Of a stretch of 64,000 nt of DNA, positions 3,808 through 61,901 are shown piece by piece. Source of the DNA: Deltaproteobacteria bacterium (lineage in GTDB: Bacteria > Desulfobacterota > GWC2-55-46); assembly GCA_016212705.1 (NCBI GenBank), contig JACREU010000081.1:19629-83628 (forward strand), read 5' to 3'. The notes under the pieces are model-generated. The model worked only from the letters and a program-made list of their open reading frames with translations, ran no database searches and had not been told where the DNA came from. Within the stretch, counting starts at the first letter, position 1. Each line of letters opens with the position of its first letter. A program made the position numbers and the translations under genes.

Positions 3808-6800
3808 TCACGCCCGGGGCATTTCCATGGCGAGGGTGCGGATCCGTCTGATGTCTATCTTGCCCGTTGCGGTGGAGGGGATTTCGTCTATCTGGTAGAG
3901 GTCTTCGCGTTTGGGGAGCCAGAGTTTGGGGAGCCCTGTTGCGAGGAGTTTTTCCCGGACCTCGGCGGGCGTTGCCTTCCCGGTGTAAAAGGCTATTATG
4001 CGTTCCCCGCGTTCCTCGTCGGGTAGCGCCGTTACCGCGCAGTTGCAGTCGCCGAGGGCTTTCGAGATAGTCTCCTCTATCATGATGTGCGGGACCATCT
4101 CCCCTCCGATTTTTGAGAAGCGCGAGAGCCTGTCGGTTATCTTTATGAACCCGTCGTCGCCTATTGAGGCGATGTCGCCCGTCACGTACCAGCCTCCCCG
4201 CATGACCTCCCTTGTGGCGTTCTCGTCGTTCAGGTAGCCCTGCATGAGGCTCGGCCCTTTTATGAGGAGGAGCCCTTCCCTGCCTGCGGGGACCTCGTTG
4301 CCGGTCTCTGGGTTAACGACCTTTACGGCGACGCCGGGGATGGCGTGGCCTACGGTCCCGGGGACGTAGCCGGTCTGTTTGACGCTCTCGTGCTCGACGT
4401 CGGGTATGTTGACAGAGACGACCGGGGCGAGCTCGGTGCAGCCGTAGCCTTCGAGGAGCTCGACGCCGAACTTTTCCTTGAAGGCCCAGGCTATGTGCGC
4501 GCGGAGCTTTTCGGCGCCTGCTATGGCGTAGCGGAGCGTGGAGAACTCATGCGCGTGGCACTTCCTGACATAGGCTGAGTACAAGGTCGGGGTGCCTATC
4601 ATGACGGTCGCCTTATATTTGGCTGAGAGCTCTCCGACGGTCCTCGCGTCAAGAGGGTTAGCGTGGTAGACGGCGGCGAAGCCGGAGATGAGCGGGTACC
4701 AGAGCGTGCCGGTGAAGCCGAAGGAATGGAAGTACGGGAGCGCCCCCATTAAAACATCCTTGTCCGAAGTGACGAAGAGTTGAGAGAAACCCTCGATGTT
4801 CGAAACTATGTTGTGATGCGTGAGCATGACGCCCTTGGGCTGGCCCGTTGAGCCGGACGTGTAGATGATGGTGGCGAGCCTTCCGGGGTCGGCCTCGCCC
4901 TTACAGTAGATCGCCTCAAGGACCCTTAGCGGGAGGACGAAGGCGAGGGCAACGGTCAATAGCTTGTCAGCCGGGGAGAACGAGAGAGCGATGTCTTCGA
5001 TAAAGGCCATGTTCCCGGCCTCCTCGATCCCCGCCTTTGAGAGGAACGCCCTCGAGGTGATGACCGTCTTTATGCCGCTCGCTTCAATGGACGAGTCGAG
5101 GGCGTCCTTGCCGGAGAAGAAGTTCAGGTTCACAGGGACCTTGCCCGCGACGAGCACCGCGATATTGGCGAGCGCCCCGGCGACGGACGACGGCAACATG
5201 AGCCCGACCTTTTCATCCTCTTTAAGGTTCTTGCCGATCCATTTGGAGAGGAGAAGCGAGGAAACCAGCGTTTTCCCCCAGGTGAGCTTCCTGCCGGTGG
5301 AATCCGCCATGCAGAAAGAGAACCAGCGCGCCTTCGCGGTCTTTATGAAACGCAGGTGCAGGAGGTCGCGTTTGGCCCTCCTGTGGACGACGGCCTCGCT
5401 CCCGAGCTCCATAACCGCCTGCCTTACCTCCTGCGAGGTCGCGCCGGTCGTCATGGGCCTGCCGAAAGATACCGTCACGTGGTGCGGGAACTCGCCCGGC
5501 CACTTCCAGAAGAACCTGCCGTCCTTGAAGCTGAAGACCGAGCCCCATACCCTGTCGAGGTGTACGGGGATTATCGGCACGTCGAGCCCTTCGACTATGC
5601 GCTCGAAGCCCTTCTTGAAGGGCTGGAGGTTGCCGGTCCTGCTTATCGCGCCCTCGGCGAATATGCAGACGATGTGGCCGTCTTTAAGCTCCTCCCTCGC
5701 CTTCTGGATGGATTTGAGGACGTCTCTCCTGTTGCCGTCGGTTATGGGGATGCACTTCATTATGCGGAGCAGCCAGTTTATGGCCTTTATGTCGTAGAAG
5801 TACCTGTGGATCATGAAGCGGACGAAACGCTGGACGCAGGCGCCGACGAGGAAGCCGTCGGCAAACGACAGGTGGTTCGAAACCAAAAGCGCCGGCCCCT
5901 TGAAGGGGACGTTCTCCTCGCCCACTACCCGTATCTTGTAGAGCGTGTGCGTGAGGAGCCAGAGGGTGAAACGGATGAGGAAGTCCGGGAGGTACTTCAT
6001 CATGAAAAGGGTGCTTAAGAGCGTCACAACGCCGAATATTAAAATAATGTCGTCGGCGCTGATCGCGAGCTTGTCCTTCATTATCCAGAAGATGCCCGAG
6101 GCCCCGAGTATGCCCGCGACCGAAACGAAGTTGGTGGTGGCCACAAGGCGGCCTTTCTCCGTTGCCCCCGCCTTTTGCTGAAGGAGCGCGTTCATCGGGA
6201 CTATGGCGAGGCCGCCGGTGAAACCGAGCATGATGAGGGCCGCGGCGGTCTTCGGGTACGACTCGCCGGAGTAGGAGAGGAGGACCGCGAAGAGGCCCAT
6301 GCCTAACGCTCCGACGGGGACGAGCCCGAGCTCGACCTTGTCGCCGGAGAGCGTCCCCGCCGCAATGGAGCCTATGCCGATGCCGATGGCGAGGAAGGTG
6401 ATGAGGATGCCGATCCACAGGTCGTTCAGATGCATGATCTCCTTGCCGAGGAGGAGGATGTCCATCTGGAGGAGCGCGCCGAGGAACCAGAAGTAGGCTA
6501 TGCCCCCCACGGTGAGCATGAGGATCTTGTCCTCAAAGAGCCGCTTTATCCCCGAGCCTATCTCGCCCCAGGGGTTTAGCTCGAACTTTTTCTTCGCCCC
6601 GGAGCTGGGGACGCGGGTTATGCCGAAGCTCGTAAGAGTCCCCGCGATTGCGATGGCGACGAGGAAGACGCCGACGTAGACGAGCTTGTCCTTCCAGGCT
6701 GAAAAAATTATCGCGCCCGTGGAGGTCCCGATGATTATGGCGAAAAAGGTGGTAAGCTCGAGTATGCCGTTGGCGCGGGACAGGTCCCTGTCAGGGAGCA

Positions 6801-50252: not shown

Positions 50253-50666
50253 ATGAAGATGAGGATCGTCTATTCTGAAGTCATCGAGAGGATGAGGTGG
50301 GTAGGCAAGCACAAGAACAACTCCTCGGTTGCGCGGGTGCTGGGGGTAACGCCTCAGGCGCTTTCCAACTACAAGAAGAAAGACAAGATGCCGGTCTCCA
50401 TAGTGCTCAAATACTCCAAGCTCTACGGCCTTTCGCTCGACTGGCTCATAACCGGCAAGGGCGAGATATTCAACGCCAGGCCGATGGCGGCGGGAGAGGC
50501 GTATGAGGCGGCCCCCGGCTCGGTCAGGATGGACCTCAACTCCCTTTCCACCGATGAGATGGTCTACACTACCAAGCTCCTCCGGATATTCCGTGGTTCG
50601 GACACTCCGTTACTCAACTCGATGAAGTATCTGCTCAACTCCCTGTCTAAAAGAGAGGCCGAGTAA
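50253..50666 (+). CDS. Phage CI-repressor-like HTH protein
   Basis: 137 aa. NSSVARVLGVTPQALSNYKKKDKMPVSIVLKYSKLYGLSLDWLITGKGE is the CI-type N-terminal HTH pattern. Confidence 0.7.
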   Translation: MKMRIVYSEVIERMRWVGKHKNNSSVARVLGVTPQALSNYKKKDKMPVSIVLKYSKLYGLSLDWLITGKGEIFNARPMAAGEAYEAAPGSVRMDLNSLSTDEMVYTTKLLRIFRGSDTPLLNSMKYLLNSLSKREAE

Positions 50667-50943: not shown

Positions 50944-51348
50944 TTAGGCGGCGCTTCTCCTTGAGGCTCCGCGTCCGTTTGAGGCGCGCGCCTTGACGCC
51001 CGGCTTCCTGCTGACTTTCGTCCCGGACCACTGAGCGCGGAGGAACGCGTTAAGGAGCGCCATTATGGCCGTCCTCCCTTTTGTTGAGAGGCGGTTATAG
51101 CCGTGCAAAAGGATGTTGCCGTCCTTTGCGCTCTCCATTGACACGTTCGAGAAGAACGCGCATACCGGGACATTCATGGATTCGGCTATCTTGATCCATT
51201 CCCCGGTCGATATCGGGGCAACGCCCTTCTCCTTCTTCGTGTACTCGCTCGTCCCGCATCCTAAGGCCTCGGCCAAGGCGTCTTTCGTGAACCCCTTTTT
51301 CCTCCGCATCGTGGAGAGTTTTTTGAGGACTTCCTCCTGCATGTTCAT
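50944..51348 (-). CDS. XRE-family HTH transcriptional regulator
   Basis: 134 aa with a strong AAGGAGG RBS. HTH segment RRKKGFTKDALAEALGCGTSEYTKKEKG, and a basic Ser/Arg-rich tail. Confidence 0.65.
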   Translation of the reverse strand: MNMQEEVLKKLSTMRRKKGFTKDALAEALGCGTSEYTKKEKGVAPISTGEWIKIAESMNVPVCAFFSNVSMESAKDGNILLHGYNRLSTKGRTAIMALLNAFLRAQWSGTKVSRKPGVKARASNGRGASRRSAA

Positions 51349-51501: not shown

Positions 51502-52323
51502 CTACGCCACCTGTTCGGCGGGTCTTTTGTAGCTCCTGTCCCTGAGGAAGGACCTGCCGAAAGAGGAGTTGGCGGCCTCTTTGAGGTTCCAGTTCATTGG
51601 GAGCGCGCACATGTCTATCTTTTCGCAGTAGACCGGCTCTCCGGTAAAGAGGGAGCCGACCCTGGTAAAGAGCTTGAGCGTCTGCGGCATCTGGAAGTCC
51701 ATCGGCTTTTCCCCGTCGCACTCAACGTAGCCGTGATCGGTAAGCGGGAACCTGAAGCCCCTTACCTTCCCGATGCCGGGTCTCTTCGGCTGTACGGCGA
51801 CGCGCTTGTCGAGCATGCCGTTATGTCTTATGTGGTCGTATATGAGATACGCGTCCGAGAGCTTGTCGGTCTCCGGGTTGACGTTTGTGACGAGGTCGGT
51901 TATCCCCCGTCCGACCGCGAACTCTATGAGCGCCTTCCAGAGATAGAATATCGTCTTGGTGGATTTGAACCTCTCTTTCACGCATGACCTCGATATCTCG
52001 GCTATGCGCATGTTCGCCGACGTGTAGCCCTTTATGTCGAAGAGCTCCTCTATGGGGAGCCCGAAGTAAGAACGTTCTCTCAGCGCGTTTTCCTTATTAG
52101 GCATGATGAGCCTTACCGCGCCGGCGATCTCCCCGTTAAAAAGGGCAAGGAACTGGTGTGTCGTCTCCAGAGAGTCGTAGCCGTCGGACTCAAGCCCCGC
52201 GCCGTTCTCCATCTGGATGTATCCCGTCTCCTTTATGAAGACGTCGTACCTTACCTTGTAGCAGAGCTCTTTCTGTTCCGGTGTCTGCGCCCTTACGACC
52301 TGGATGCCCGTTTCCATCTCCAC
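51502..52323 (-). CDS. Autoinducer-synthase-fold GNAT, N-acyl amino-acid synthase / OlsB-like
   Basis: 273 aa with a GGAGGTG RBS. N-terminal AQTPEQKELCYKVRYDVFIKETGY, central IAEISRSCV, and C-terminal MPQTLKLFTRVGSLFTGEPVYCEKIDMCALPM all match the pattern of this GNAT subgroup. The assignment is by motif recall, not by search. Confidence 0.6.
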   Translation of the reverse strand: MEMETGIQVVRAQTPEQKELCYKVRYDVFIKETGYIQMENGAGLESDGYDSLETTHQFLALFNGEIAGAVRLIMPNKENALRERSYFGLPIEELFDIKGYTSANMRIAEISRSCVKERFKSTKTIFYLWKALIEFAVGRGITDLVTNVNPETDKLSDAYLIYDHIRHNGMLDKRVAVQPKRPGIGKVRGFRFPLTDHGYVECDGEKPMDFQMPQTLKLFTRVGSLFTGEPVYCEKIDMCALPMNWNLKEAANSSFGRSFLRDRSYKRPAEQVA

Positions 52324-52392: not shown

Positions 52393-54027
52393 TCAATTAT
52401 TTGCCCGCGCTCCGGCGTACTGGTCAAGCCTCGCGCTCTCGTTTATTTTTTCTATTATGGCGGACATGCTTTCGCGGTCGCCGACGATGAGGTAATGCCC
52501 GACCTTGTCCCTGAACTCCCGGTAGCCCATCCCGCAATGCCTGGAGACGAGGGCCGTGTCGTCCATGACCTGCGTAAGCAGGCCCTCGTCCTCGAGGCGT
52601 TTCGCGAAGGCTGTCGATCCCAGGGCTATCTCTGAAAAATGCCTGCCGTTTATCCTGTATTCGAGCGGCCTCCAGAGCGTCGGAGGCAGGCAGAGGGCGG
52701 GCGTGAAGAACATGAGGTCGTCGAAGTAGTCGGCGGAGAGCTCTATCCCGTACTTTTCCGGGAAGTCGCCCCACTCGCTCCTCGGTGAGACTATGGGGGC
52801 GCAGACGTAGACCGCGTCGGGCCGGGTCTCCTTTATGAATGCGAAGGTGTCGCAATCGGTCTCTTCCGTCCCGCCGGGCGGGGGGTAGACGAAGCTCGCC
52901 ACGGTGAAAAGGCCGCTCTCCCTGCACTCGCGTATAGTTTTTTTGGCGCGCTCGAGGTCGAGGCCCTTGTTTATGTAGCGGTCGAGATGTGCCTGGTTGC
53001 CGGACTCTATCCCGAAGAAGATGGAGAAACACCCGGAGCGCCTCAATGTATCGAAGGACCCCTGGTCGAGGTTGTTTATGTGGCTTATGAGGGCGTACTC
53101 GATGTCGAGCCCCTGAGAGATTATTTTTTCCGCGACGTCTTTTATAAGGAACCCCGGGGTGTTCGAGTCCCCGTTCCTGAATATGCGCGTCCCGTGGTTT
53201 TCGATGACGTGGCGGAATTCCTGAAGGATATGCTCCGAGGTCTTGCACCTCCAGCGCGCGCCGCTTTTCATCGAGTGCCCGCAGAAGTGGCACTTAAAAG
53301 GGCATCCCCGGCTGAACTCGGAGATGAACATCTTGAGCTTCTTATTCCCCGAGAGCGCCGGGTAGGTCTCTGCGTCGTAGACGGGGAAGGAGAGGCTCAA
53401 GTCCTCGAGCCTTCTTTCGCGTGTAGTTATTATCTCCGAGCCGTCCCTGAAGATGAGGTTCGGGACCGCGCCGTACCCTTTTTTGGCGGCTACGCTCTCC
53501 GCGAGCGCAACAATAGTCTCCTCGCCCTCGCCGTAGGCGAGGGCGTCGAAGACGCCCGTCACCTTGTAAATCCTCTCCCTGAAGTAATCGACATGAGGGC
53601 CGCCGCCGAATATGGGGATGTGGGGCAGGCGCTTTTTTATCCCGTCAGCGAGCTTTATGCAGTTTTCAAAGCCCTTGCCGGTCCAGAGCTTCATGCCGAT
53701 GAAGTCGGCCTTTTCCCGCACGGCGGCCGCGCTTATCTCAGAGGCCTTTCTCTCGATATCCTCGTCCTGTATCCTGTCTATCGCAACCCTTATCCTCTCG
53801 AGCTCGCCGGAGTGCGCCTCGTTGCCCTGCCTTAGCGAATAGAGCCGCTCCCCGAGTTCGCGGGGCAGGAGCTCCATCACATCAAGGGTGTTGTAGTCGA
53901 GTATCCTGGTCACGTGCCCCTGGGATTTAAGCGACCCCGCGAGGACGGCGAGGCCGTTGTCCGGAAAAAAGGCGTGCGGTGAAGTCGGGTAGCCCGAGTA
54001 GTTTATGAGGAGGCTTCTGCTCTTCAT
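52393..54027 (-). CDS. Cobalamin-binding-domain (class B) radical SAM enzyme
   Basis: 544 aa. The N-terminal Rossmann-like B12-binding region (...FIGMKLWTGKG...IPIFGGGPH...) is followed by the radical SAM core with SRGCPFKCHFCGH (CxxxCxxC). Confidence 0.82.
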   Translation of the reverse strand: MKSRSLLINYSGYPTSPHAFFPDNGLAVLAGSLKSQGHVTRILDYNTLDVMELLPRELGERLYSLRQGNEAHSGELERIRVAIDRIQDEDIERKASEISAAAVREKADFIGMKLWTGKGFENCIKLADGIKKRLPHIPIFGGGPHVDYFRERIYKVTGVFDALAYGEGEETIVALAESVAAKKGYGAVPNLIFRDGSEIITTRERRLEDLSLSFPVYDAETYPALSGNKKLKMFISEFSRGCPFKCHFCGHSMKSGARWRCKTSEHILQEFRHVIENHGTRIFRNGDSNTPGFLIKDVAEKIISQGLDIEYALISHINNLDQGSFDTLRRSGCFSIFFGIESGNQAHLDRYINKGLDLERAKKTIRECRESGLFTVASFVYPPPGGTEETDCDTFAFIKETRPDAVYVCAPIVSPRSEWGDFPEKYGIELSADYFDDLMFFTPALCLPPTLWRPLEYRINGRHFSEIALGSTAFAKRLEDEGLLTQVMDDTALVSRHCGMGYREFRDKVGHYLIVGDRESMSAIIEKINESARLDQYAGARANN

Positions 54028-54155
54028 GAGGCCCGTCGCGGCATTGGACTTGAATCGCGTCCACGCGCTGGGCCCCCCTTAAGTTTAACGGGAGGCCTTT
54101 TAAGTTTAGGGGCAGCCTTTAGTTTGGCTTGACCGGGTCGAGTGTCTTTAAGGGG

Positions 54156-54188
54156 ATTATAATCGGGGCAAGGTGACAGATAGGTGAC
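54156..54188 (-). promoter_or_regulatory. Activator-type promoter of the rSAM/GNAT operon: two GTCACCT heptamers at 11-bp spacing plus a perfect TATAAT
   Basis: The minus strand reads GTCACCT(54188-54182)-atct-GTCACCT(54177-54171)-tgccccgat-TATAAT(54161-54156). There is no -35 hexamer. Confidence 0.5.
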
Positions 54189-54230
54189 GGATTAGGGGGT
54201 GTGAGGCAAGAGGCTTAAAAAAACGGGGTG

Positions 54231-57200
54231 TTATCTTACGGCGGAAAGGGAGAGGTAGATGTTTTTCGTCCTGGGAGAGGGCGCTATGCCGAGGACCTCT
54301 TCGAGCCCCCTCTCAAGGCGCTTGTACAAGACGAGGGCCTCGCCGCTCCTCCCATGTTTTTCGAGTAAGACCATGAGCTTTTGGTAGAGTTCCTCGGAGA
54401 GGGACTCTACCGCTATCCCCCTACGGTAGCATTCGATCGCCTTCCCGGCGTCTCCGGCCTTTTCCCAATGGGAGCCGAGGCTTGCGACCGCGCTTATGTA
54501 CCTTTCCCTGACGCCATCGTAAAAGAGTACGACCCAGGGGTTCTCGTCCGGCTCTATCTGGAAGCCCCCGCCGTAGAGCTCTATGGCATCCTCAAGCGCC
54601 TTTACGGGGGAATCGGTCTTTCCGTGGAAAGGCTTCGCGTCGTCGACCGCCTGGTTGAACTTCCAGACGTCGACCCAGGCGTAGCGCGCATTCAGCGCGA
54701 GCCTGCCATCTTTGAGGAGCACCGCGTCCTCGATCCCGATGAGGGACCGGAGGCGCTTGAGCGTTGTAGTGAAGGCCACATGCGCCGCGTCCCCTTCGGA
54801 ATCGTGCCAGAGCGCGTCGGATATCCTGCTCTCGGGGACGTTCCTGCCGCCGAAGGAGATGAGGAGTTTGAGCATCTCGATGAGTTTTTTCGGGGTCTTT
54901 CTGCCGAACTGCGTCTGAACGCCGTCCTTATACACAGCGAACCTGCCGAGGGTATAAATTTTAAGGCGCCAGGGCCACTCGTCAAGCCCTAAAGGCGGGG
55001 TCTCCGGGAAGAGGTACCTCTCCCTTATGAGCCTCTTCGCGTAATCGGGTTCAATCCCCTCCTCTATGGCCAGCGCGCAGAGTTCCGCCATTATGTCGGT
55101 CCGCCACATGTGAAAGTTGACGAAGCCCTGCCTGGACCCGAGCGAGAAGGCCTCCTTGAGCTTATCGGCCGCGGCGCGGCGTTTGCCGCTTTCGAGCGCG
55201 AACCAGGCCTCGAAGACCGAGGCGACGAAGACGACGAGCTTGCTACCCGTGCGCATTGCGAGCGCGCGGGCGCGCGCGGCCTCCTCGAAGCCCTTGAGCC
55301 TTTCGCCGAGCTCGAAGCGCACAAGCGCGAGCCCTGTCCTGGACATCGCCTCGGCAAAGGGCGAGCCCATCTCCATCGCGAGGCCCAAAGAGAGCTTTTC
55401 GTGCTCGAGCGCGCCGGGGAGGTCTTTCGTAAGGAGCCTGTGGCAGGCCTCTATGTGGTGGTAATATGACGCGCAGAACCTTCTCCTCTCGTCCATGGCC
55501 GAGGCGGCTTTTTTGAGGAATCTCTCGGCCCCGCTCAAGTCCCCGGATGTGAGCGAGCAGACCGCGCCGTGTCCGTAAAGGAAGTAGTCGAAGATATTCA
55601 TGCCCTTGGCCTCGGAGGTACGGAGCCCCTCTCTTACCGTGGCCACGCACGCGTCGAGCTTGCCCCGGTACAGGGAGTTAAGCGCCTCCGAGAGCTTTAT
55701 GGCGACCTGCGCGAAAGGGGAGTGGTCCCGGCGCTTCGCCATGCTTGAGAGCCGCTCGACTATCATATTGGCCTTTTCGAGGTCTCCGGTCCAGACGAAG
55801 TAATCAACGAGGCACAGACCCGTCTGCGCATAAGCGTCGGGGTCGGGGATTTCGTCAAGGAGCGAGAGGGTCTTCTCCGCCCAGAGGCCCATATCCGGGT
55901 GGGCCGGGGCCCTGAACGAGAGCGCGAGAAACATGAAGAGCGTTGAGCGGACCTCGACCTCCTTTGATGGGAACGTCCCGTATTCCTTGAGCAACCCGTC
56001 GAATACGGCTATCCAGCGGTCCAGGGGCTTCAGGTTGTCAAAGCGGTGTATAAGCGCTTCTACCGCCCCGGACCAGCTCATGAAGACGCCCTGCTGGTCT
56101 CCGGAGGCGCGCGCGGCCTCGAAGGCCTTCTCGAAGAATAAAACGGACTTTTCCTGGTCGAAGTGAAAATAGCACCGCCCCTTCCAGAACCACAGGGAAG
56201 GGTTCCCGGCCATCTCCTCTTCCCCCATGCCCTCCAGCCAGTCCTTGAGCGTTAGGTATCTGCCTTGCCGCAGGAGCGAGGGCGCCTCCCGACAGATAAG
56301 TTCGCCGAGCGAGACCTTGTCATCGGCGCGGAGGAAGAGCGTGGCGGCCTCTTCCGGGTATCCGTTCTCCGCGAGTATCCCGGCGGCCCTCTTCTCTATT
56401 GCCGCAAGTGATGGAGGGGCCGTCTCCCGCTTAAGCCTGGATGATAGGAACTCCCTGAAGAGGTTGTGGTACTGATAGCTCTCCTCCTCGCCCGAGTGGC
56501 TCTGGATGAAGTAGTTCTTTTCCACAAGCTCTGAGAGCATCGCCCCGGAGCGTTTGTTCCCGGTAAGCGCCTCCGCCATCCCCGGGGTCATCACCGGGAA
56601 TAGAGACGTCTTAAGCAAAAACCCCCTGAAGTCGGCCGGGAGCTTCTGGAAGAAGCCGGACGCGAAGTAGTCGAATACCTCCGTTGGGTTGTGTCTGTCT
56701 ATCCGCTCAGTGCCGAAGTCTTCGGTTTCGCTGCCGAGGAGGAGGACGAGGCCGGCGAGCCACCCGTCTGTGGAGGACAGGAGGTTACGGACCTGCTCGT
56801 CGGTCAAGTGCCTGCCGCGCTTCCTGTAGGCTATGCCGCGGACCTCGTCAGGCGTCAAGCGGAGTTCCTCCCAGGAGACCGTCTCCATGGAGCTGGCGAG
56901 CCGCATCCTCGAGAAGACAGGCGGAGGGGCGCCCCTGCTTATTATAAGGACGTTCGATTTCCTGGGGAGCGCGTCCAGGCCTTCGTGGATTATCTCGTGT
57001 AGGGCGGACTCAAAGGTAGCCTCCTGGAAGTTGTCGAATACGATAAGGGCCTTGGGGCCCAGGCGCGAGTAGAGTTCTGAAAAGTACTCGCGCGAGAAGG
57101 CCTTGAGGCCTAACGCGTATTCCGGGGTGAAGTGGGGTAGCGGCTTTTTTTTTCTGGGATTGGCCTTAAGGGCGGCAAGCCCCATGTAATGGAAGAAGGA

Positions 57201-57428
57201 GCCGGGGTCGCTGTCGCCGCGGTCTACCTGGTACCAGACGCAGGAGAGCTTCCTGGCCTCTATGTAGCTCGCCACAAGGGTCGTCTTGCCCGAGCCCGGC
57301 GGGGCGTGGACCCAGATGAGGGGTTTTTCCCTGCACTTATCGAGGATGCTGAAAAATTTGTCGCGGAAAAATATGTTCTGCGGGGCGGGCCTTGTTATCT
57401 TGGCGAGTGATTCAGGGAGGTTTTTCAT
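54231..57428 (-). CDS. Large STAND-type regulator: MalT-like ATPase N-terminus, TPR-like helical middle, C-terminal SARP module (OmpR-type wHTH + BTAD)
   Basis: 1065 aa. P-loop VHAPPGSGKTTLV followed by VWYQVDRGDSDP (MalT-like). The C-terminus has LKIYTLGRFAVYKDG...TLKRLRSLIG (wHTH), then WVDVWKF...ELYGGGF...EELYQKLMVLLEKHGRSGEALVLYKRLE (BTAD). Confidence 0.75.
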   Translation of the reverse strand: MKNLPESLAKITRPAPQNIFFRDKFFSILDKCREKPLIWVHAPPGSGKTTLVASYIEARKLSCVWYQVDRGDSDPGSFFHYMGLAALKANPRKKKPLPHFTPEYALGLKAFSREYFSELYSRLGPKALIVFDNFQEATFESALHEIIHEGLDALPRKSNVLIISRGAPPPVFSRMRLASSMETVSWEELRLTPDEVRGIAYRKRGRHLTDEQVRNLLSSTDGWLAGLVLLLGSETEDFGTERIDRHNPTEVFDYFASGFFQKLPADFRGFLLKTSLFPVMTPGMAEALTGNKRSGAMLSELVEKNYFIQSHSGEEESYQYHNLFREFLSSRLKRETAPPSLAAIEKRAAGILAENGYPEEAATLFLRADDKVSLGELICREAPSLLRQGRYLTLKDWLEGMGEEEMAGNPSLWFWKGRCYFHFDQEKSVLFFEKAFEAARASGDQQGVFMSWSGAVEALIHRFDNLKPLDRWIAVFDGLLKEYGTFPSKEVEVRSTLFMFLALSFRAPAHPDMGLWAEKTLSLLDEIPDPDAYAQTGLCLVDYFVWTGDLEKANMIVERLSSMAKRRDHSPFAQVAIKLSEALNSLYRGKLDACVATVREGLRTSEAKGMNIFDYFLYGHGAVCSLTSGDLSGAERFLKKAASAMDERRRFCASYYHHIEACHRLLTKDLPGALEHEKLSLGLAMEMGSPFAEAMSRTGLALVRFELGERLKGFEEAARARALAMRTGSKLVVFVASVFEAWFALESGKRRAAADKLKEAFSLGSRQGFVNFHMWRTDIMAELCALAIEEGIEPDYAKRLIRERYLFPETPPLGLDEWPWRLKIYTLGRFAVYKDGVQTQFGRKTPKKLIEMLKLLISFGGRNVPESRISDALWHDSEGDAAHVAFTTTLKRLRSLIGIEDAVLLKDGRLALNARYAWVDVWKFNQAVDDAKPFHGKTDSPVKALEDAIELYGGGFQIEPDENPWVVLFYDGVRERYISAVASLGSHWEKAGDAGKAIECYRRGIAVESLSEELYQKLMVLLEKHGRSGEALVLYKRLERGLEEVLGIAPSPRTKNIYLSLSAVR

Positions 57429-58884: not shown

Positions 58885-59508
58885 TCAGCGACGCATTCCA
58901 AAAAGGCTCTTCTCCCTTATATAATCCTCTATGGCGTCGCGCGTCTTTTCGTCATCCGTCAAAAACTTTACGCCCATCTTGTTGCCGTCGCCTATCCAGA
59001 CGACCCTCCCCCTGATGGCGCAAGTCTCCACTTCGTCTCTCTTCAGATGGACTGTTATCTCCTTCCATAGCCTGTCCAATGACACGTTTTTGCCGTCTAT
59101 GCAGACGCCGGATACGCTCAAGTTCACGATGTTGCCCTGGAAGATAAGGCGGTTGATGGAGTATTCAACCCCGTTGTCATTGAGCGCGTGCCTTGCCTCG
59201 TCCCTGCAACCGTCGAGGAGCTCCTTAAGGTTATTAATGAACATCTTCATGGACCTTAATGAGATATTGTCGACCTTCTCGGAGTTCTTAAGGCCTGCGG
59301 CCTCTTTTTCCGCCTCAAGTATGAGCCTTCTGTACCTGGGCACGCTCTTGAAAAGGACGTCTCTCGCGATGAGGAAGGGCCCGGCCGCGACATAGAGGTC
59401 TTTTACGGGAATTACCTCGGTACACCCCGGACAGACCATCTCAGCGGCCCTGGTCTTGAAAGGGAGGTGAATCCACTCCTGGCAACCTGGACATTCCATT
59501 TTAAGCAT
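58885..59508 (-). CDS. Zinc-ribbon / PilZ-domain protein
   Basis: 207 aa with N-terminal CPGCQEW...CPGC and a C-terminal PilZ-like beta-barrel (GNIVNLSVSGVCIDG...IRGRVVWIGDGNKMGVKF). Confidence 0.65.
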   Translation of the reverse strand: MLKMECPGCQEWIHLPFKTRAAEMVCPGCTEVIPVKDLYVAAGPFLIARDVLFKSVPRYRRLILEAEKEAAGLKNSEKVDNISLRSMKMFINNLKELLDGCRDEARHALNDNGVEYSINRLIFQGNIVNLSVSGVCIDGKNVSLDRLWKEITVHLKRDEVETCAIRGRVVWIGDGNKMGVKFLTDDEKTRDAIEDYIREKSLFGMRR

Positions 59509-59709: not shown

Positions 59710-59739
59710 TGTAATGTTACACATATGTGACATGTTACA
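59710..59739. promoter_or_regulatory. Two dyad-symmetric sites (candidate enhancer/UAS)
   Basis: tgtaa-tg-ttaca (59710-59721) and tgtgacatgttaca (59726-59739), with the palindrome cacatatgtg between them. They lie about 115-155 bp upstream of the candidate -24/-12 element. Confidence 0.3.
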
Positions 59740-59759: not shown

Positions 59760-61901
59760 CTATCTGCCTGTTGAACGGTTTTGAGAAAGCATCCTGTATA
59801 GGGTCTGTCTGCTTATCCCCAACAGTCCGGCGGCCTTTGATTTATTGCCCGCGGACCTTTCAAGGGCGCTCAAGACCGAACCGATGTCGGTCTTTCTCGG
59901 CCTTATGGGCCTATCCTGTCCTGTTTCCCCGGGTAGCTTGAAATACATGGGGAGCGCCTCCATGCCTATGGTCTCGGAGCGCGATACGATGAAGGCGTGT
60001 TCAAGCGTGTGCTCAAGCTCGCGGATGTTACCCGGCCATCCGTAGCCCATGAAGGCCCTTTGGACCTCCGGGGATATGAGGGAGATGTTCTTGCAGTACT
60101 TCTTGTTGAACCCCGATATGAAGTGGCCGACGAGGAGCGGCAGGTCCTCGAGCCTTTGCCTGAGAGGCGGGAGCGATATCTCCACGACCTTCAGCCTGTA
60201 ATAGAGGTCCTCCCTGAACCTCCCCTCCCTGACCCTCTGGAGGAGGTCGCGGTTCGTGGCCGCGATTATCCTCACATCAGACTTCATCGTCGTCGAGTCC
60301 CCGAGCCTCTCGAACTCCCTGTGCTGGAGGACGCGGAGCAGCTTCAATTGAGTCTCCTCGGATAAGTCGCCTATCTCGTCCAAAAAGATAGTCCCGTTGT
60401 CGGCGAGCTCGAACCTCCCGATCCTGTCGCGGACAGCGCCGGTGAAGGCGCCCCTCACATGGCCGAAGAGCTCGCTCCCCAGGAGGTGCTCGGGTATCGC
60501 CGAGCAGTTGACCTTTACAAGGGGGCCGTTTGAGCGCAGGCCCCCGTAATGGATAGCCTCCGCGACGAGCTCCTTGCCGGTGCCGGTCTCGCCTGTTATG
60601 AGGACGGTAGTCGTAAGGTCGGCGAGGTCGCCTATGAGCGAGTAGATCTCCTGCATGCGGGGCGCCGCGCCGATGATGTTATGCAGTTGCTTCCGCTCAT
60701 TCAAATCGCGCTCAAGCACGGCGAGCCGGGTCTCGTCCCTTACTACCAGGACCGCCCCTGAGAAGCCCCCGTCGCAGTCGACGAGCGGGTAGGCGTTTAT
60801 CCCGACTGTCTGGCCCCTACCCGGCCTTCCGCACTCTATGCGGCCCGCCTCGACCGGCCCCATGCGCCTGAAGGTCTCGGCGAGTGTTTCGAAGCATTTT
60901 TTGGAGCAGTCCATGATGAGCGAGTTGAAGCGGTGGCCGATGTCCCCCCGTGAAAGGGCGCATATGCGGGAGGCGGAATAGTTAAGCTCCAATATGGTGA
61001 AATCGAGGTCGATGGTTATTATCGCGTCCCTGACAGACCGGAATATCGCCTCGAGGTTCGAGCGGTACTTGTTCACCTCAGCCTCGGCGCGCTTGAAATC
61101 AGTGATGTCGCTACCGGAGCTCAACGACCCGTTGACCTCGCCTGACGGTGACTTGAGGACCGTGTTGTGCCATGCTATTGTCCTCTCTTCGCCGCTTGCC
61201 GTAAGGACGGGGTTTTCGTAATAATCGCACCCCGCCCTGCCTGAGATGAGAGAGATGAACGCCGCCCGTAGCGCCTCCCTCGTGCGCGCGGGCACGAAGC
61301 TCGCGAACCAGTTCTTTCCGAGTATCTCGGCCTCGGCATACCCGAGCACCTCCGCGCCCTTCCTGTTTATCATCGTGACGTTTTCGTCCGCGTCTATGGC
61401 CACGAAGATGACGCCCGCGAGGTCGAGGTATCTCTGCGCCTTGTCGCGCTCAGAGCGCAGATTTTCCTCGGTCTGCCTCCTGTAGCTTATGTCTCTGGCG
61501 ATGCCGATGACGCCCGTTATCTCGCCTTTTTCGTCCCTGAATGGGACGTTTTTGTATTCGCAGAGAATGCCGGTGTCCTTGAAATACAGCTCGTACTCCG
61601 GGGACTCGCCCCGAAGCGTCGTTGTGTAGGCGTCTATGGCTTTTTTGAGGTTGTTTTCGTCAAAGAGCGGTCCAAAAGGTTTTCCGATGAACTCCTCGGG
61701 CTTGTGTCCGGAGTAGCGCTCTAGCTCCCGGTTGACGAAGAGGATGTTGCCAGCGGTGTCGCAGATATAGGCGAGGTCGTTGATGCCCAGGAAAAGCGCC
61801 TCGAACTTCTTAAGCTCGATCACCTCGCGCTCTTTTGCCGAGAGCGCCTCCTTAAGGGCCTTTATCTCGTCTGCGTTTTTATTTTTCATATCTTCCGACA
61901 T
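59760..61901 (-). CDS. Sigma-54-dependent transcriptional activator with three PAS domains
   Basis: 713 aa with PAS segments, an AAA+ sigma-54 interaction domain (GETGTGKELVAEAIH, GSELFGHVRGAFTGA, FLDEIGD, RLKVVEISLPPLRQR), and a C-terminal Fis-type HTH (AAGLLGISRQTLYRML). Confidence 0.92.
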   Translation of the reverse strand: MSEDMKNKNADEIKALKEALSAKEREVIELKKFEALFLGINDLAYICDTAGNILFVNRELERYSGHKPEEFIGKPFGPLFDENNLKKAIDAYTTTLRGESPEYELYFKDTGILCEYKNVPFRDEKGEITGVIGIARDISYRRQTEENLRSERDKAQRYLDLAGVIFVAIDADENVTMINRKGAEVLGYAEAEILGKNWFASFVPARTREALRAAFISLISGRAGCDYYENPVLTASGEERTIAWHNTVLKSPSGEVNGSLSSGSDITDFKRAEAEVNKYRSNLEAIFRSVRDAIITIDLDFTILELNYSASRICALSRGDIGHRFNSLIMDCSKKCFETLAETFRRMGPVEAGRIECGRPGRGQTVGINAYPLVDCDGGFSGAVLVVRDETRLAVLERDLNERKQLHNIIGAAPRMQEIYSLIGDLADLTTTVLITGETGTGKELVAEAIHYGGLRSNGPLVKVNCSAIPEHLLGSELFGHVRGAFTGAVRDRIGRFELADNGTIFLDEIGDLSEETQLKLLRVLQHREFERLGDSTTMKSDVRIIAATNRDLLQRVREGRFREDLYYRLKVVEISLPPLRQRLEDLPLLVGHFISGFNKKYCKNISLISPEVQRAFMGYGWPGNIRELEHTLEHAFIVSRSETIGMEALPMYFKLPGETGQDRPIRPRKTDIGSVLSALERSAGNKSKAAGLLGISRQTLYRMLSQNRSTGR

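Follow-up and report, generated by a model that had tools for sequence, protein, structure and literature searches.

MalT of Escherichia coli activates promoters without a −35 element in a signal-dependent manner, and PhoB uses tandem winged helix-turn-helix (wHTH) domains of the OmpR type to bind the Pho box, in which the −35 element is replaced, about 10 bp from the −10 element, by two direct repeats of 7 bp that are 4 bp apart. For the SARP regulators, the rule is that the repeats are 11 or 22 bp apart, that 8 bp separate the 3′ repeat from the −10 element, and that the box overlaps the −35 element (PMC10936776, PMC10972967). In the case of AfsR, two SARP protomers bind side by side to two 11-bp direct repeats that overlap the −35 element, in an afs box that spans −40 to −19, and contact region 4 of the sigma factor as well as the core RNA polymerase (PMC10936776). 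According to their description, SARPs occur only in actinobacteria and carry the SARP domain N-terminally (PMC10972967). Here, we analyze a promoter element on the minus strand (54195 to 54156) of a 64,000-nt stretch of DNA from a member of the Deltaproteobacteria (GCA_016212705.1, contig JACREU010000081.1, positions 19,629 to 83,628), which is called the window below. The element is located between the gene for a 1,065-aa regulator, for which we use the name REG, and the genes for a radical SAM enzyme, a FeeM-like N-acyltransferase of the GNAT type, and an XRE-type helix-turn-helix (HTH) protein. It is likely to be the activator-dependent core promoter of this putative operon, bound by two REG modules that replace the −35 element, and its repeats are most likely the binding site of the regulator encoded next door.

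Layout of the element and fold of the adjacent regulator

Direct reading of the minus strand from 54195 to 54156 gives CTAATCC GTCACCT atct GTCACCT tgccccgat TATAAT. Thus, the distal GTCACCT heptamer (54188-54182) is followed by a 4-nt spacer, atct (54181-54178), and by an identical proximal heptamer (54177-54171), so that the two starts (54188 and 54177) are 11 bp apart. A pyrimidine-rich spacer of 9 nt, tgccccgat (54162-54170), separates the proximal heptamer from a perfect −10 hexamer, TATAAT (54156-54161), which was assigned by its sequence only. In the alignment of 16 sites that is described below, the repeat units are instead framed as a distal core, AATCCGTCA (54185-54193), and a proximal core, TATCTGTCA (54174-54182), exactly 11 bp past the distal one. 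A consensus scan of the region from 53800 to 54500 did not reveal any sigma-70 type −35/−10 pair, the best −35 match at a spacer of 16–18 nt being 2/6, and a TGn extended −10 is also missing at this site. From the position of the −10 hexamer, transcription is predicted to start at about 54150-54148; if the start is about 7 nt past the −10 hexamer, the leader of the radical SAM open reading frame, which starts at 54027, would be about 122 nt long. A search of the region from 53800 to 54400 against Rfam found no RNA family in this leader. A mini-open reading frame of six codons that overlaps the radical SAM start was considered and dropped; it is not kept in the 95% relative.

The gene for REG (54231-57428, minus strand) was characterized with Pfam, NCBIfam, a PDB search, and an AlphaFold model. 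The protein consists, in this order, of a MalT-like STAND ATPase (residues ~10-414), a helical, TPR-like sensor, a wHTH (~819-918), and a BTAD (919-1058). The MalT N-terminus was recognized by NCBIfam across residues 10-414 with an E value of 7e-55, below the full-length cut-off of the model, and a PDB sequence search returned MalT (8bob, E 7e-24) as well as AfsR (8hvr, E 2e-4). A Walker A motif (GPPGSGKTT) is present in the translation, and WHD_MalT is recorded for homologues of REG. At the other end of the protein, Pfam detected a BTAD (E 4e-17) with a weak Trans_reg_C match just ahead of it (E 0.039), and NCBIfam matched the AfsR SARP region to the C-terminus (E 3e-6). There was no GerE hit by Pfam in REG, that is, no sign of a LuxR/GerE HTH; the C-terminus is a wHTH followed by a BTAD.

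The fold of this module, which is encoded by 54255-54974 (minus strand), was predicted by AlphaFold for the last 265 residues of REG with an alignment of 90 sequences. The model has a predicted local distance difference test score (pLDDT) of 94.4 and a predicted template modeling score (pTM) of 0.90, and its topology is beta-beta, three helices, and a hairpin, followed by an all-helical domain. In a Foldseek comparison with the PDB, the top matches were the SARP domain of AfsR in complexes with RNA polymerase (8k60 and 8hvr, template modeling (TM) score about 0.70 over about 250 aligned columns), and EmbR (2fez) was also among the top matches (E about 1e-9 to 1e-10, TM 0.65–0.70 for these top hits), while TPR proteins followed far below. 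The recognition helix of REG reads ...AAHVAFTTTLKRLRS...; the T and the R of its FTTTLKRLR stretch align with T88 and R92 of AfsR (phmmer against 8hvr_I, with a weak E value of 0.23, in agreement with the structural match). These two residues of AfsR have been reported to contact bases (PMC10936776).

By its fold, the DNA-binding module of REG qualifies as a SARP domain, in that an OmpR-type wHTH is directly followed by a BTAD. However, the module lies at residues ~819-1058 of 1,065 and not at the N-terminus, and the relatives of the host belong to the Deltaproteobacteria/Thermodesulfobacteriota and not to the actinobacteria. With the MalT/LAL regulators, REG shares the N-terminal STAND ATPase, the Walker A motif, the MalT-type winged helix, and the helical sensor. 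REG is not a canonical SARP, and the most suitable name for it is a reverse-architecture STAND-SARP regulator, with an operator of the SARP type; we found no paper describing this reverse-architecture family.

The comparison with described systems shows shared as well as specific features. AfsR of Streptomyces coelicolor, studied with the afs box at the afsS promoter (8hvr, 8jke, 8k60), has, like REG, a wHTH and a BTAD together with a STAND-type ATPase and a TPR-like sensor within one polypeptide, and its promoter, like the one described here, has two 11-bp direct repeats at the −35 position just upstream of the −10 element. In contrast, the SARP domain comes first in AfsR, whereas REG has the order ATPase, sensor, SARP; in addition, the ATPase of REG is MalT-like with WHD_MalT, the repeat is ATCyGTnA, the gap to the −10 element is 9 nt instead of 8, and the host is an uncultured member of the Thermodesulfobacteriota/Deltaproteobacteria. 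MalT of E. coli and the LAL regulators share with REG the STAND ATPase, the helical sensor, and a C-terminal DNA-binding output, and the first 400 residues of REG match MalT, but their output is a LuxR/GerE HTH and not a wHTH plus BTAD, and MalT boxes differ from the strict 11-bp tandem repeat seen here. The small SARPs ActII-ORF4, DnrI, and RedD and the SARP-LAL PimR also use direct repeats of heptamers, 4 nt apart, which lie at or close to the −35 position of target promoters within their clusters, and their genes adjoin the respective biosynthetic targets (PMC10972967, PMC5930380). They differ in being actinobacterial, in having an N-terminal SARP module, and in that three repeats are often present, compared with two repeats of a different core at this locus.

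The preliminary description of the window had listed the two heptamers with their 4-bp spacer and 11-bp periodicity, the 9 bp between the proximal heptamer and a perfect TATAAT, the lack of a recognizable −35 element, a wHTH plus BTAD module at the end of the upstream gene (here with a model pLDDT of 94 and structural matches to the AfsR SARP domain and EmbR), and a promoter that faces the radical SAM gene with a leader of about 120 nt. All of these points were confirmed. Its reading of the geometry as SARP-style and of the regulator as a SARP-family member is supported, with some modifications. As at SARP operators, direct repeats with a period of 11 bp are present, a period that recurs in all other sites, the −35 element is replaced, and the 3′ repeat is close to 8 bp from the −10 element, but the gap of 9 nt is 1 bp off; likewise, the wHTH plus BTAD fold holds, but this module follows a MalT-type ATPase at the C-terminal end, and the protein is non-actinobacterial.

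If the −10 hexamer is counted as −12 to −7, the 11-bp units that begin with the heptamers span −39 to −18. In the mechanism that we propose, two C-terminal wHTH-BTAD modules of REG would occupy the two copies of (A)ATCyGTCA next to each other, both on the same helical face. The bound modules would recruit RNA polymerase or adapt it, in the manner of AfsR at the afs box, and would substitute for the missing −35 contact. Binding is probably gated by the MalT-like STAND ATPase and the helical sensor via ligand- and ATP-dependent oligomerization.

Conservation of the element beside the regulator gene

The genes for REG, the radical SAM enzyme, and the GNAT protein are syntenic in 12 loci. Eight of them are from species-level genomes (G000, which is the genome of the window, and L028, L029, L031, L032, L033, L034, and L035), and four are further contigs that were reached through homologues of the regulator (L091-L094), of which L092 holds only the regulator and the XRE gene. 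The nearest public relatives are metagenome-assembled genomes (MAGs) of Deltaproteobacteria/Thermodesulfobacteriota from groundwater. In two genomes of the same genus, the sequence TAATCyGTCACCTATCTGTCACCTTGCCCCGnTTATAAT is intact, and in the 83% relative the intergenic DNA around the intact block has diverged. An alignment of four intergenic regions contains a near-continuous invariant block, AATC-GTCACCTATCTGTCACC, with one variable column, within sequence whose mean column identity is 55%.

To search the spacers between the REG gene and the operon, the full 40-nt sequence of G000 was used a priori as an ungapped template. The best 40-mer match in each of the spacers always has the same 7-4-7-9-6 layout. 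Its significance was determined by counting how many of 2000 dinucleotide shuffles scored as well: there were none for L029, L035, and L093, 6 for L033, 8 each for L031 and L092, 9 for L091, and 10 for L032, while the counts were higher for L034 (57/2000) and L094 (119/2000). In L031, L032, L033, and L094, where the REG gene is followed by the XRE gene and then by the radical SAM gene, the site is found at the head of the operon, upstream of the XRE gene.

The aligned sites give the consensus nnAATCnGTcAcCnATctGTcA...TA...t, in which the conserved repeat unit is (A)ATCyGTnA with a period of 11 bp, about 4 nt 5′ of the heptamer register. Across the 16 aligned sites, AATC and GT.A are invariant or nearly so. 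The heptamer GTCACCT, which the preliminary description had taken as the unit, is thus only partly retained: GTCA is kept family-wide, but its CCT tail is specific to the lineage. In all two-repeat sites found, 9 nt separate the proximal heptamer from the −10 hexamer, although the sequence of this spacer varies. The first two positions of the −10 hexamer are TA in 13 of the 16 orthologous or paralogous sites, and no −35 match exceeds 3/6 in any of them.

A T7 tract is located about 18 nt 5′ of the repeat core in the window (54211-54217, minus strand), and a run of 6–8 T is found 5–25 nt ahead of the operator in most loci. In L031 and L035, this run is preceded by an inverted repeat that, by eye, is likely to be a terminator hairpin, while no hairpin was predicted in G000. 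The T-run may be the tail of a REG terminator or, alternatively, an UP-like tract.

In public data, proteins with the architecture of the regulator form more than 100 clusters when grouped at 90% identity, and the names of homologues point to Nitrospira, Binatia, Acidobacteriota, and Pseudomonadota. Of nine distant homologues, with about 35–43% identity, seven carry the same layout directly 3′ of the regulator gene, while the genes downstream are unrelated (small open reading frames, response regulators, a lipase). The preliminary description had named the absence of the heptamers from orthologous loci as an outcome that would speak against it; the element was present in every orthologous locus found and in these seven distant loci. 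The site thus tracks the regulator gene and not the cargo.

The repeat cores of the distant loci differ at the third base of GTnA. Both cores are GTGA in L095 and L098, GTAA in L096 and G006/L102, GTCA in L103, and GTTA in L106, and L104 has three repeats with the cores GTGA, GTAA, and GTGA. Base 3 is identical in both repeats (C/C, T/T, A/A, or G/G) in every two-repeat locus, which fits one protein species reading both half-sites with a lineage-specific specificity. A covariation of the recognition helix with this base is only suggestive: K is found with a pyrimidine in 4/4 lineages, and a residue other than K with a purine in 6/8, for which our own Fisher estimate is about 0.03. Specifically, K precedes the base-contacting Arg where base 3 is C or T, AS precedes F where it is T (two lineages), and S occurs with G (two lineages). 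Exceptions are L103, L034, L096, and L091, and the lineages are not independent.

In L104, at about 5182-5230, the three repeats read GTGACCC ggct GTAAGCT gtat GTGACTG ahead of TATCAT, so that they are phased at 11 bp with a mixture of G and A at base 3.

To assess how specific the site is within G000, a 1.98-Mb assembly of an 86%-complete MAG, we analyzed the occurrence of its parts. The heptamer GTCACCT is not enriched, with 6 copies in the window compared to 4.4 expected and 190 copies in the genome, and there are 204 exact repeats of any 7-mer at 11 bp in the genome and 6 in the window. The exact 18-mer of both heptamers and the spacer, in contrast, occurs once in the genome, and a weight matrix built from the orthologous sites gave the G000 site 32.4 bits, compared with 17.7 bits for the next best hit in a genome scan. 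No other CTGTCA-N5-CTGTCA or TGTCA-N6-TGTCA is present anywhere in the 1.98-Mb assembly. Among 41 relatives, ATCYGTCA-N3-ATCYGTCA with up to one mismatch occurs at most once per genome, namely in four cassette-bearing genomes and in G002; a control with the reversed pattern gave two hits. These scans suggest a single-site regulon for REG. Autoregulation of REG was considered and rejected: the weight matrix found no site upstream of the REG gene and no second hit above 12 bits nearby.

Alternative readings of the repeats

Several observations weigh against REG acting at this site as an activator. Both the start site and the −10 assignment are deduced from the sequence, the gap to the −10 hexamer is 9 nt and not the 8 of the SARP rule, and, when framed on the conserved ATC, the box lies 3–4 bp further upstream than the afs box. 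With the 20 positions specified in the preliminary description as the template, the distant orthologues were non-significant (p 0.08–0.4), and significance was reached only with the full 40-nt template, since part of the conserved core falls outside the heptamers. The generic pattern, that is, any 7-mer repeat at 11 bp followed at 7–10 nt by a hexamer matching TAnnnT in at least 5/6 positions, occurs at four places in the genome, compared with about two expected by our estimate. The bare architecture is thus near chance genome-wide, and the case therefore rests on context and conservation. Two of the nine distant homologues, L097, with a tandem pair of regulators, and L105, with a convergent downstream gene, had no site in the sequence examined, and the covariation between the recognition helix and base 3 is no more than suggestive. 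No convincing terminator or hairpin was found between REG and the site in G000, so that read-through transcription from REG may add to the expression of the operon. Finally, G002, a genome of the same genus that lacks REG, contains a one-mismatch match, TAATCCGTCATGGATCGGTCAC (G002:C47:22238-22256, minus strand), upstream of a gene for a methyl-accepting chemotaxis protein. Because this genome lacks the regulator and the reversed-pattern control gave two hits, we treated the match as probably due to chance, although it could be a relic site.

The counts of 204 exact 7-mer repeats and of four places with a −10-like hexamer could be taken to mean that the repeat itself is a chance occurrence in an ordinary intergenic region. 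This possibility is effectively refuted by the comparison of loci, that is, by the conservation in 12 orthologous loci and in seven of nine distant homologues, by shuffle counts down to 0/2000, and by a sharp phylogenetic footprint. It is also quite unlikely that REG binds the repeats as a repressor or roadblock and occupies the −35 region of a promoter that would otherwise fire from its −10 element. The site does overlap the region that RNA polymerase must contact, TATAAT is a perfect −10 hexamer, and activation as the sign of regulation is what we infer. However, the G000 site has neither a −35 element nor a TGn extended −10, and none of the 16 sites has a −35 match above 3/6, so that a basal promoter to be repressed is unlikely. 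Moreover, a BTAD is part of the module, whose structure is similar to the RNA polymerase-bound form of AfsR, and all characterized SARPs that bind at that position activate transcription (PMC10936776, PMC10972967).

The other alternatives assign the repeats to a different protein. Most cassettes include an XRE gene, which in several of them directly follows the site, and a gene for a CI-like repressor is also conserved nearby, so that an XRE- or CI-type HTH protein (50944-51348 or 50253-50666) might read the repeats. We consider this very unlikely: the site is present in L035 and L091, in which similarity searches detected no XRE gene, Pfam found none among the tested genes downstream of the site in L095, L096, and L098, and L102, L103, and L106 have the site but no XRE gene directly downstream. 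Furthermore, the site is a strict direct repeat and not an inverted repeat, whereas XRE and CI proteins typically bind inverted repeats as dimers. A site resembling a Pho box, read by another response regulator of the OmpR/PhoB type and only incidentally adjacent to REG, is highly improbable, in spite of a clear resemblance. The stretch CCGTCACCTATCTGTCAC is similar to the E. coli Pho box CTGTCATAWAWCTGTCAY, with 15 of 18 positions matching by our own count, the core CTGTCA is similar, and in the Pho box, too, the layout is 7-4-7, at a distance of about 10 bp from the −10 element. However, a Pho regulon would have several sites, and neither a second weight-matrix hit nor another CTGTCA-N5-CTGTCA was found in the assembly, which is 86% complete and in which the pst genes were not located. 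In addition, the site accompanies the REG gene in 19 loci that differ in their cargo and is absent from relatives without the cassette, save for the one-mismatch hit. PhoB itself differs in having a regulon instead of one site, in being linked to phosphate genes instead of a STAND-SARP gene, and in carrying a receiver domain instead of a BTAD. That the site is kept beside REG with varied cargo, often without an XRE gene, argues for REG and against both an XRE protein and a global response regulator.

The comparisons thus support the interpretation of regulator, operator, and target that had been put forward in the preliminary description, with REG as the probable activator. They suggest that a promoter design regarded as typical of the antibiotic regulators of Streptomyces also operates in uncultured Deltaproteobacteria from groundwater. 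There it would serve a large and apparently unstudied family of regulators with the reversed domain order, from an N-terminal MalT-like ATPase to a C-terminal SARP module. This family is present in uncultured Deltaproteobacteria and, judged by the names of homologues, in several other phyla. The proposed operator grammar, (A)ATCyGTnA twice at 11 bp, 9 nt, and a −10 element, is simple and predictive, so that the direct target of each family member should be readable from the sequence. For an orphan cluster of a radical SAM enzyme and an N-acyltransferase, it yields a concrete regulator-operator-target triplet, and it suggests a route to the heterologous expression of silent clusters from uncultured organisms, with the isolated C-terminal module as a putative activator.

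A more far-reaching reading, which we put forward tentatively and consider doubtful, is that the cassette forms a self-contained small-molecule signaling circuit of an undescribed kind, comprising synthesis, sensing, and positive feedback. A modified N-acyl amino acid would be the product of the FeeM-like acyltransferase and the B12-binding radical SAM enzyme, REG would detect it with its helical/TPR sensor, and REG would turn on the synthase operon via the ATCyGTnA double repeat, in a positive feedback comparable to that of LuxI/LuxR. In its widest form, this would imply a cross-phylum class of regulators with one operator grammar, in which base 3 of GTnA tunes the specificity.

Cassette genes and further observations

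All three genes of the putative operon are on the minus strand. The first target gene (52393-54027) encodes a radical SAM enzyme of 544 aa with the Pfam domains B12-binding and Radical_SAM, for which no NCBIfam equivalog reaches its cut-off. The second (51502-52323) encodes the FeeM-like, LuxI-fold N-acyltransferase of 273 aa (Pfam FeeM, Acetyltransf_5, and Autoind_synth), and in the orthologous loci it always adjoins the radical SAM gene. The last gene in the window (50944-51348) encodes the XRE-type HTH protein of 134 aa (Pfam HTH_3). The gene for the CI-like HTH protein (50253-50666) is on the plus strand and was found to be conserved nearby by the comparison of loci. Both small HTH genes accompany the cassette. 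The position of the XRE gene shifts, from the last gene in G000 to the first after the operator in L031-L033, L092, and L094; L092 has this gene together with the regulator and the site but has neither a radical SAM nor a GNAT gene.

A metagenome scan with the radical SAM alignment mostly retrieved paralogues of 35–45% identity, in clusters of several radical SAM genes without a regulator or GNAT gene. There were only two orthologous hits, one of which is a duplicate, while the other (L040) ends before the site. The sister family of radical SAM proteins in the metagenome contigs L041-L085, with 35–45% identity, is encoded in clusters of two or three B12-radical SAM genes that include neither the regulator nor the acyltransferase, so that this type of enzyme is used in at least two genomic contexts.

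Some observations concern PEP-CTERM/exosortase systems. A protein with a PEP-CTERM motif is encoded downstream of the distant regulator in L096 (7677-8312), an exosortase-domain gene lies beside another distant regulator in L097 (1-502), and the acyltransferase of the window (51502-52323) has a sub-threshold match to the exosortase-associated acyltransferase TIGR03694. The links of the cassette and of the regulator family to such systems are weak.

Two regulator genes are unusual. In G006:C49:36504-39676 (L101/L102), the regulator is split into open frames of 693 aa and 527 aa, while the site downstream is intact, and in L035 (986-4168) the last approximately 40 residues of the regulator are unrelated where the BTAD should end. 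Both could be due to a frameshift, gene decay, or an assembly error.

Two further sequences came up in the scans of G000. A near-palindrome, AACATGTCACATATGTGTAACAT (59710-59739 of the window, minus strand), was a weak hit in the repeat and matrix scans. It is located between a gene for a sigma-54 activator (59760-61901) and a PilZ gene (58885-59508) and resembles a dyad of the enhancer type for the sigma-54 activator encoded next to it and not a REG site. A second promoter-like direct repeat, TCCGCTG-taaa-TCCGCTG, is found on contig C111 at about 6532 (minus strand), 10 nt from a TATAAT. It lies 85 nt upstream of an open reading frame of 159 aa that begins with MDPVHFTGKEVLDMAVKIEENG and possibly encodes a rubrerythrin- or ferritin-like protein, and it may be the site of another regulator that binds direct repeats.

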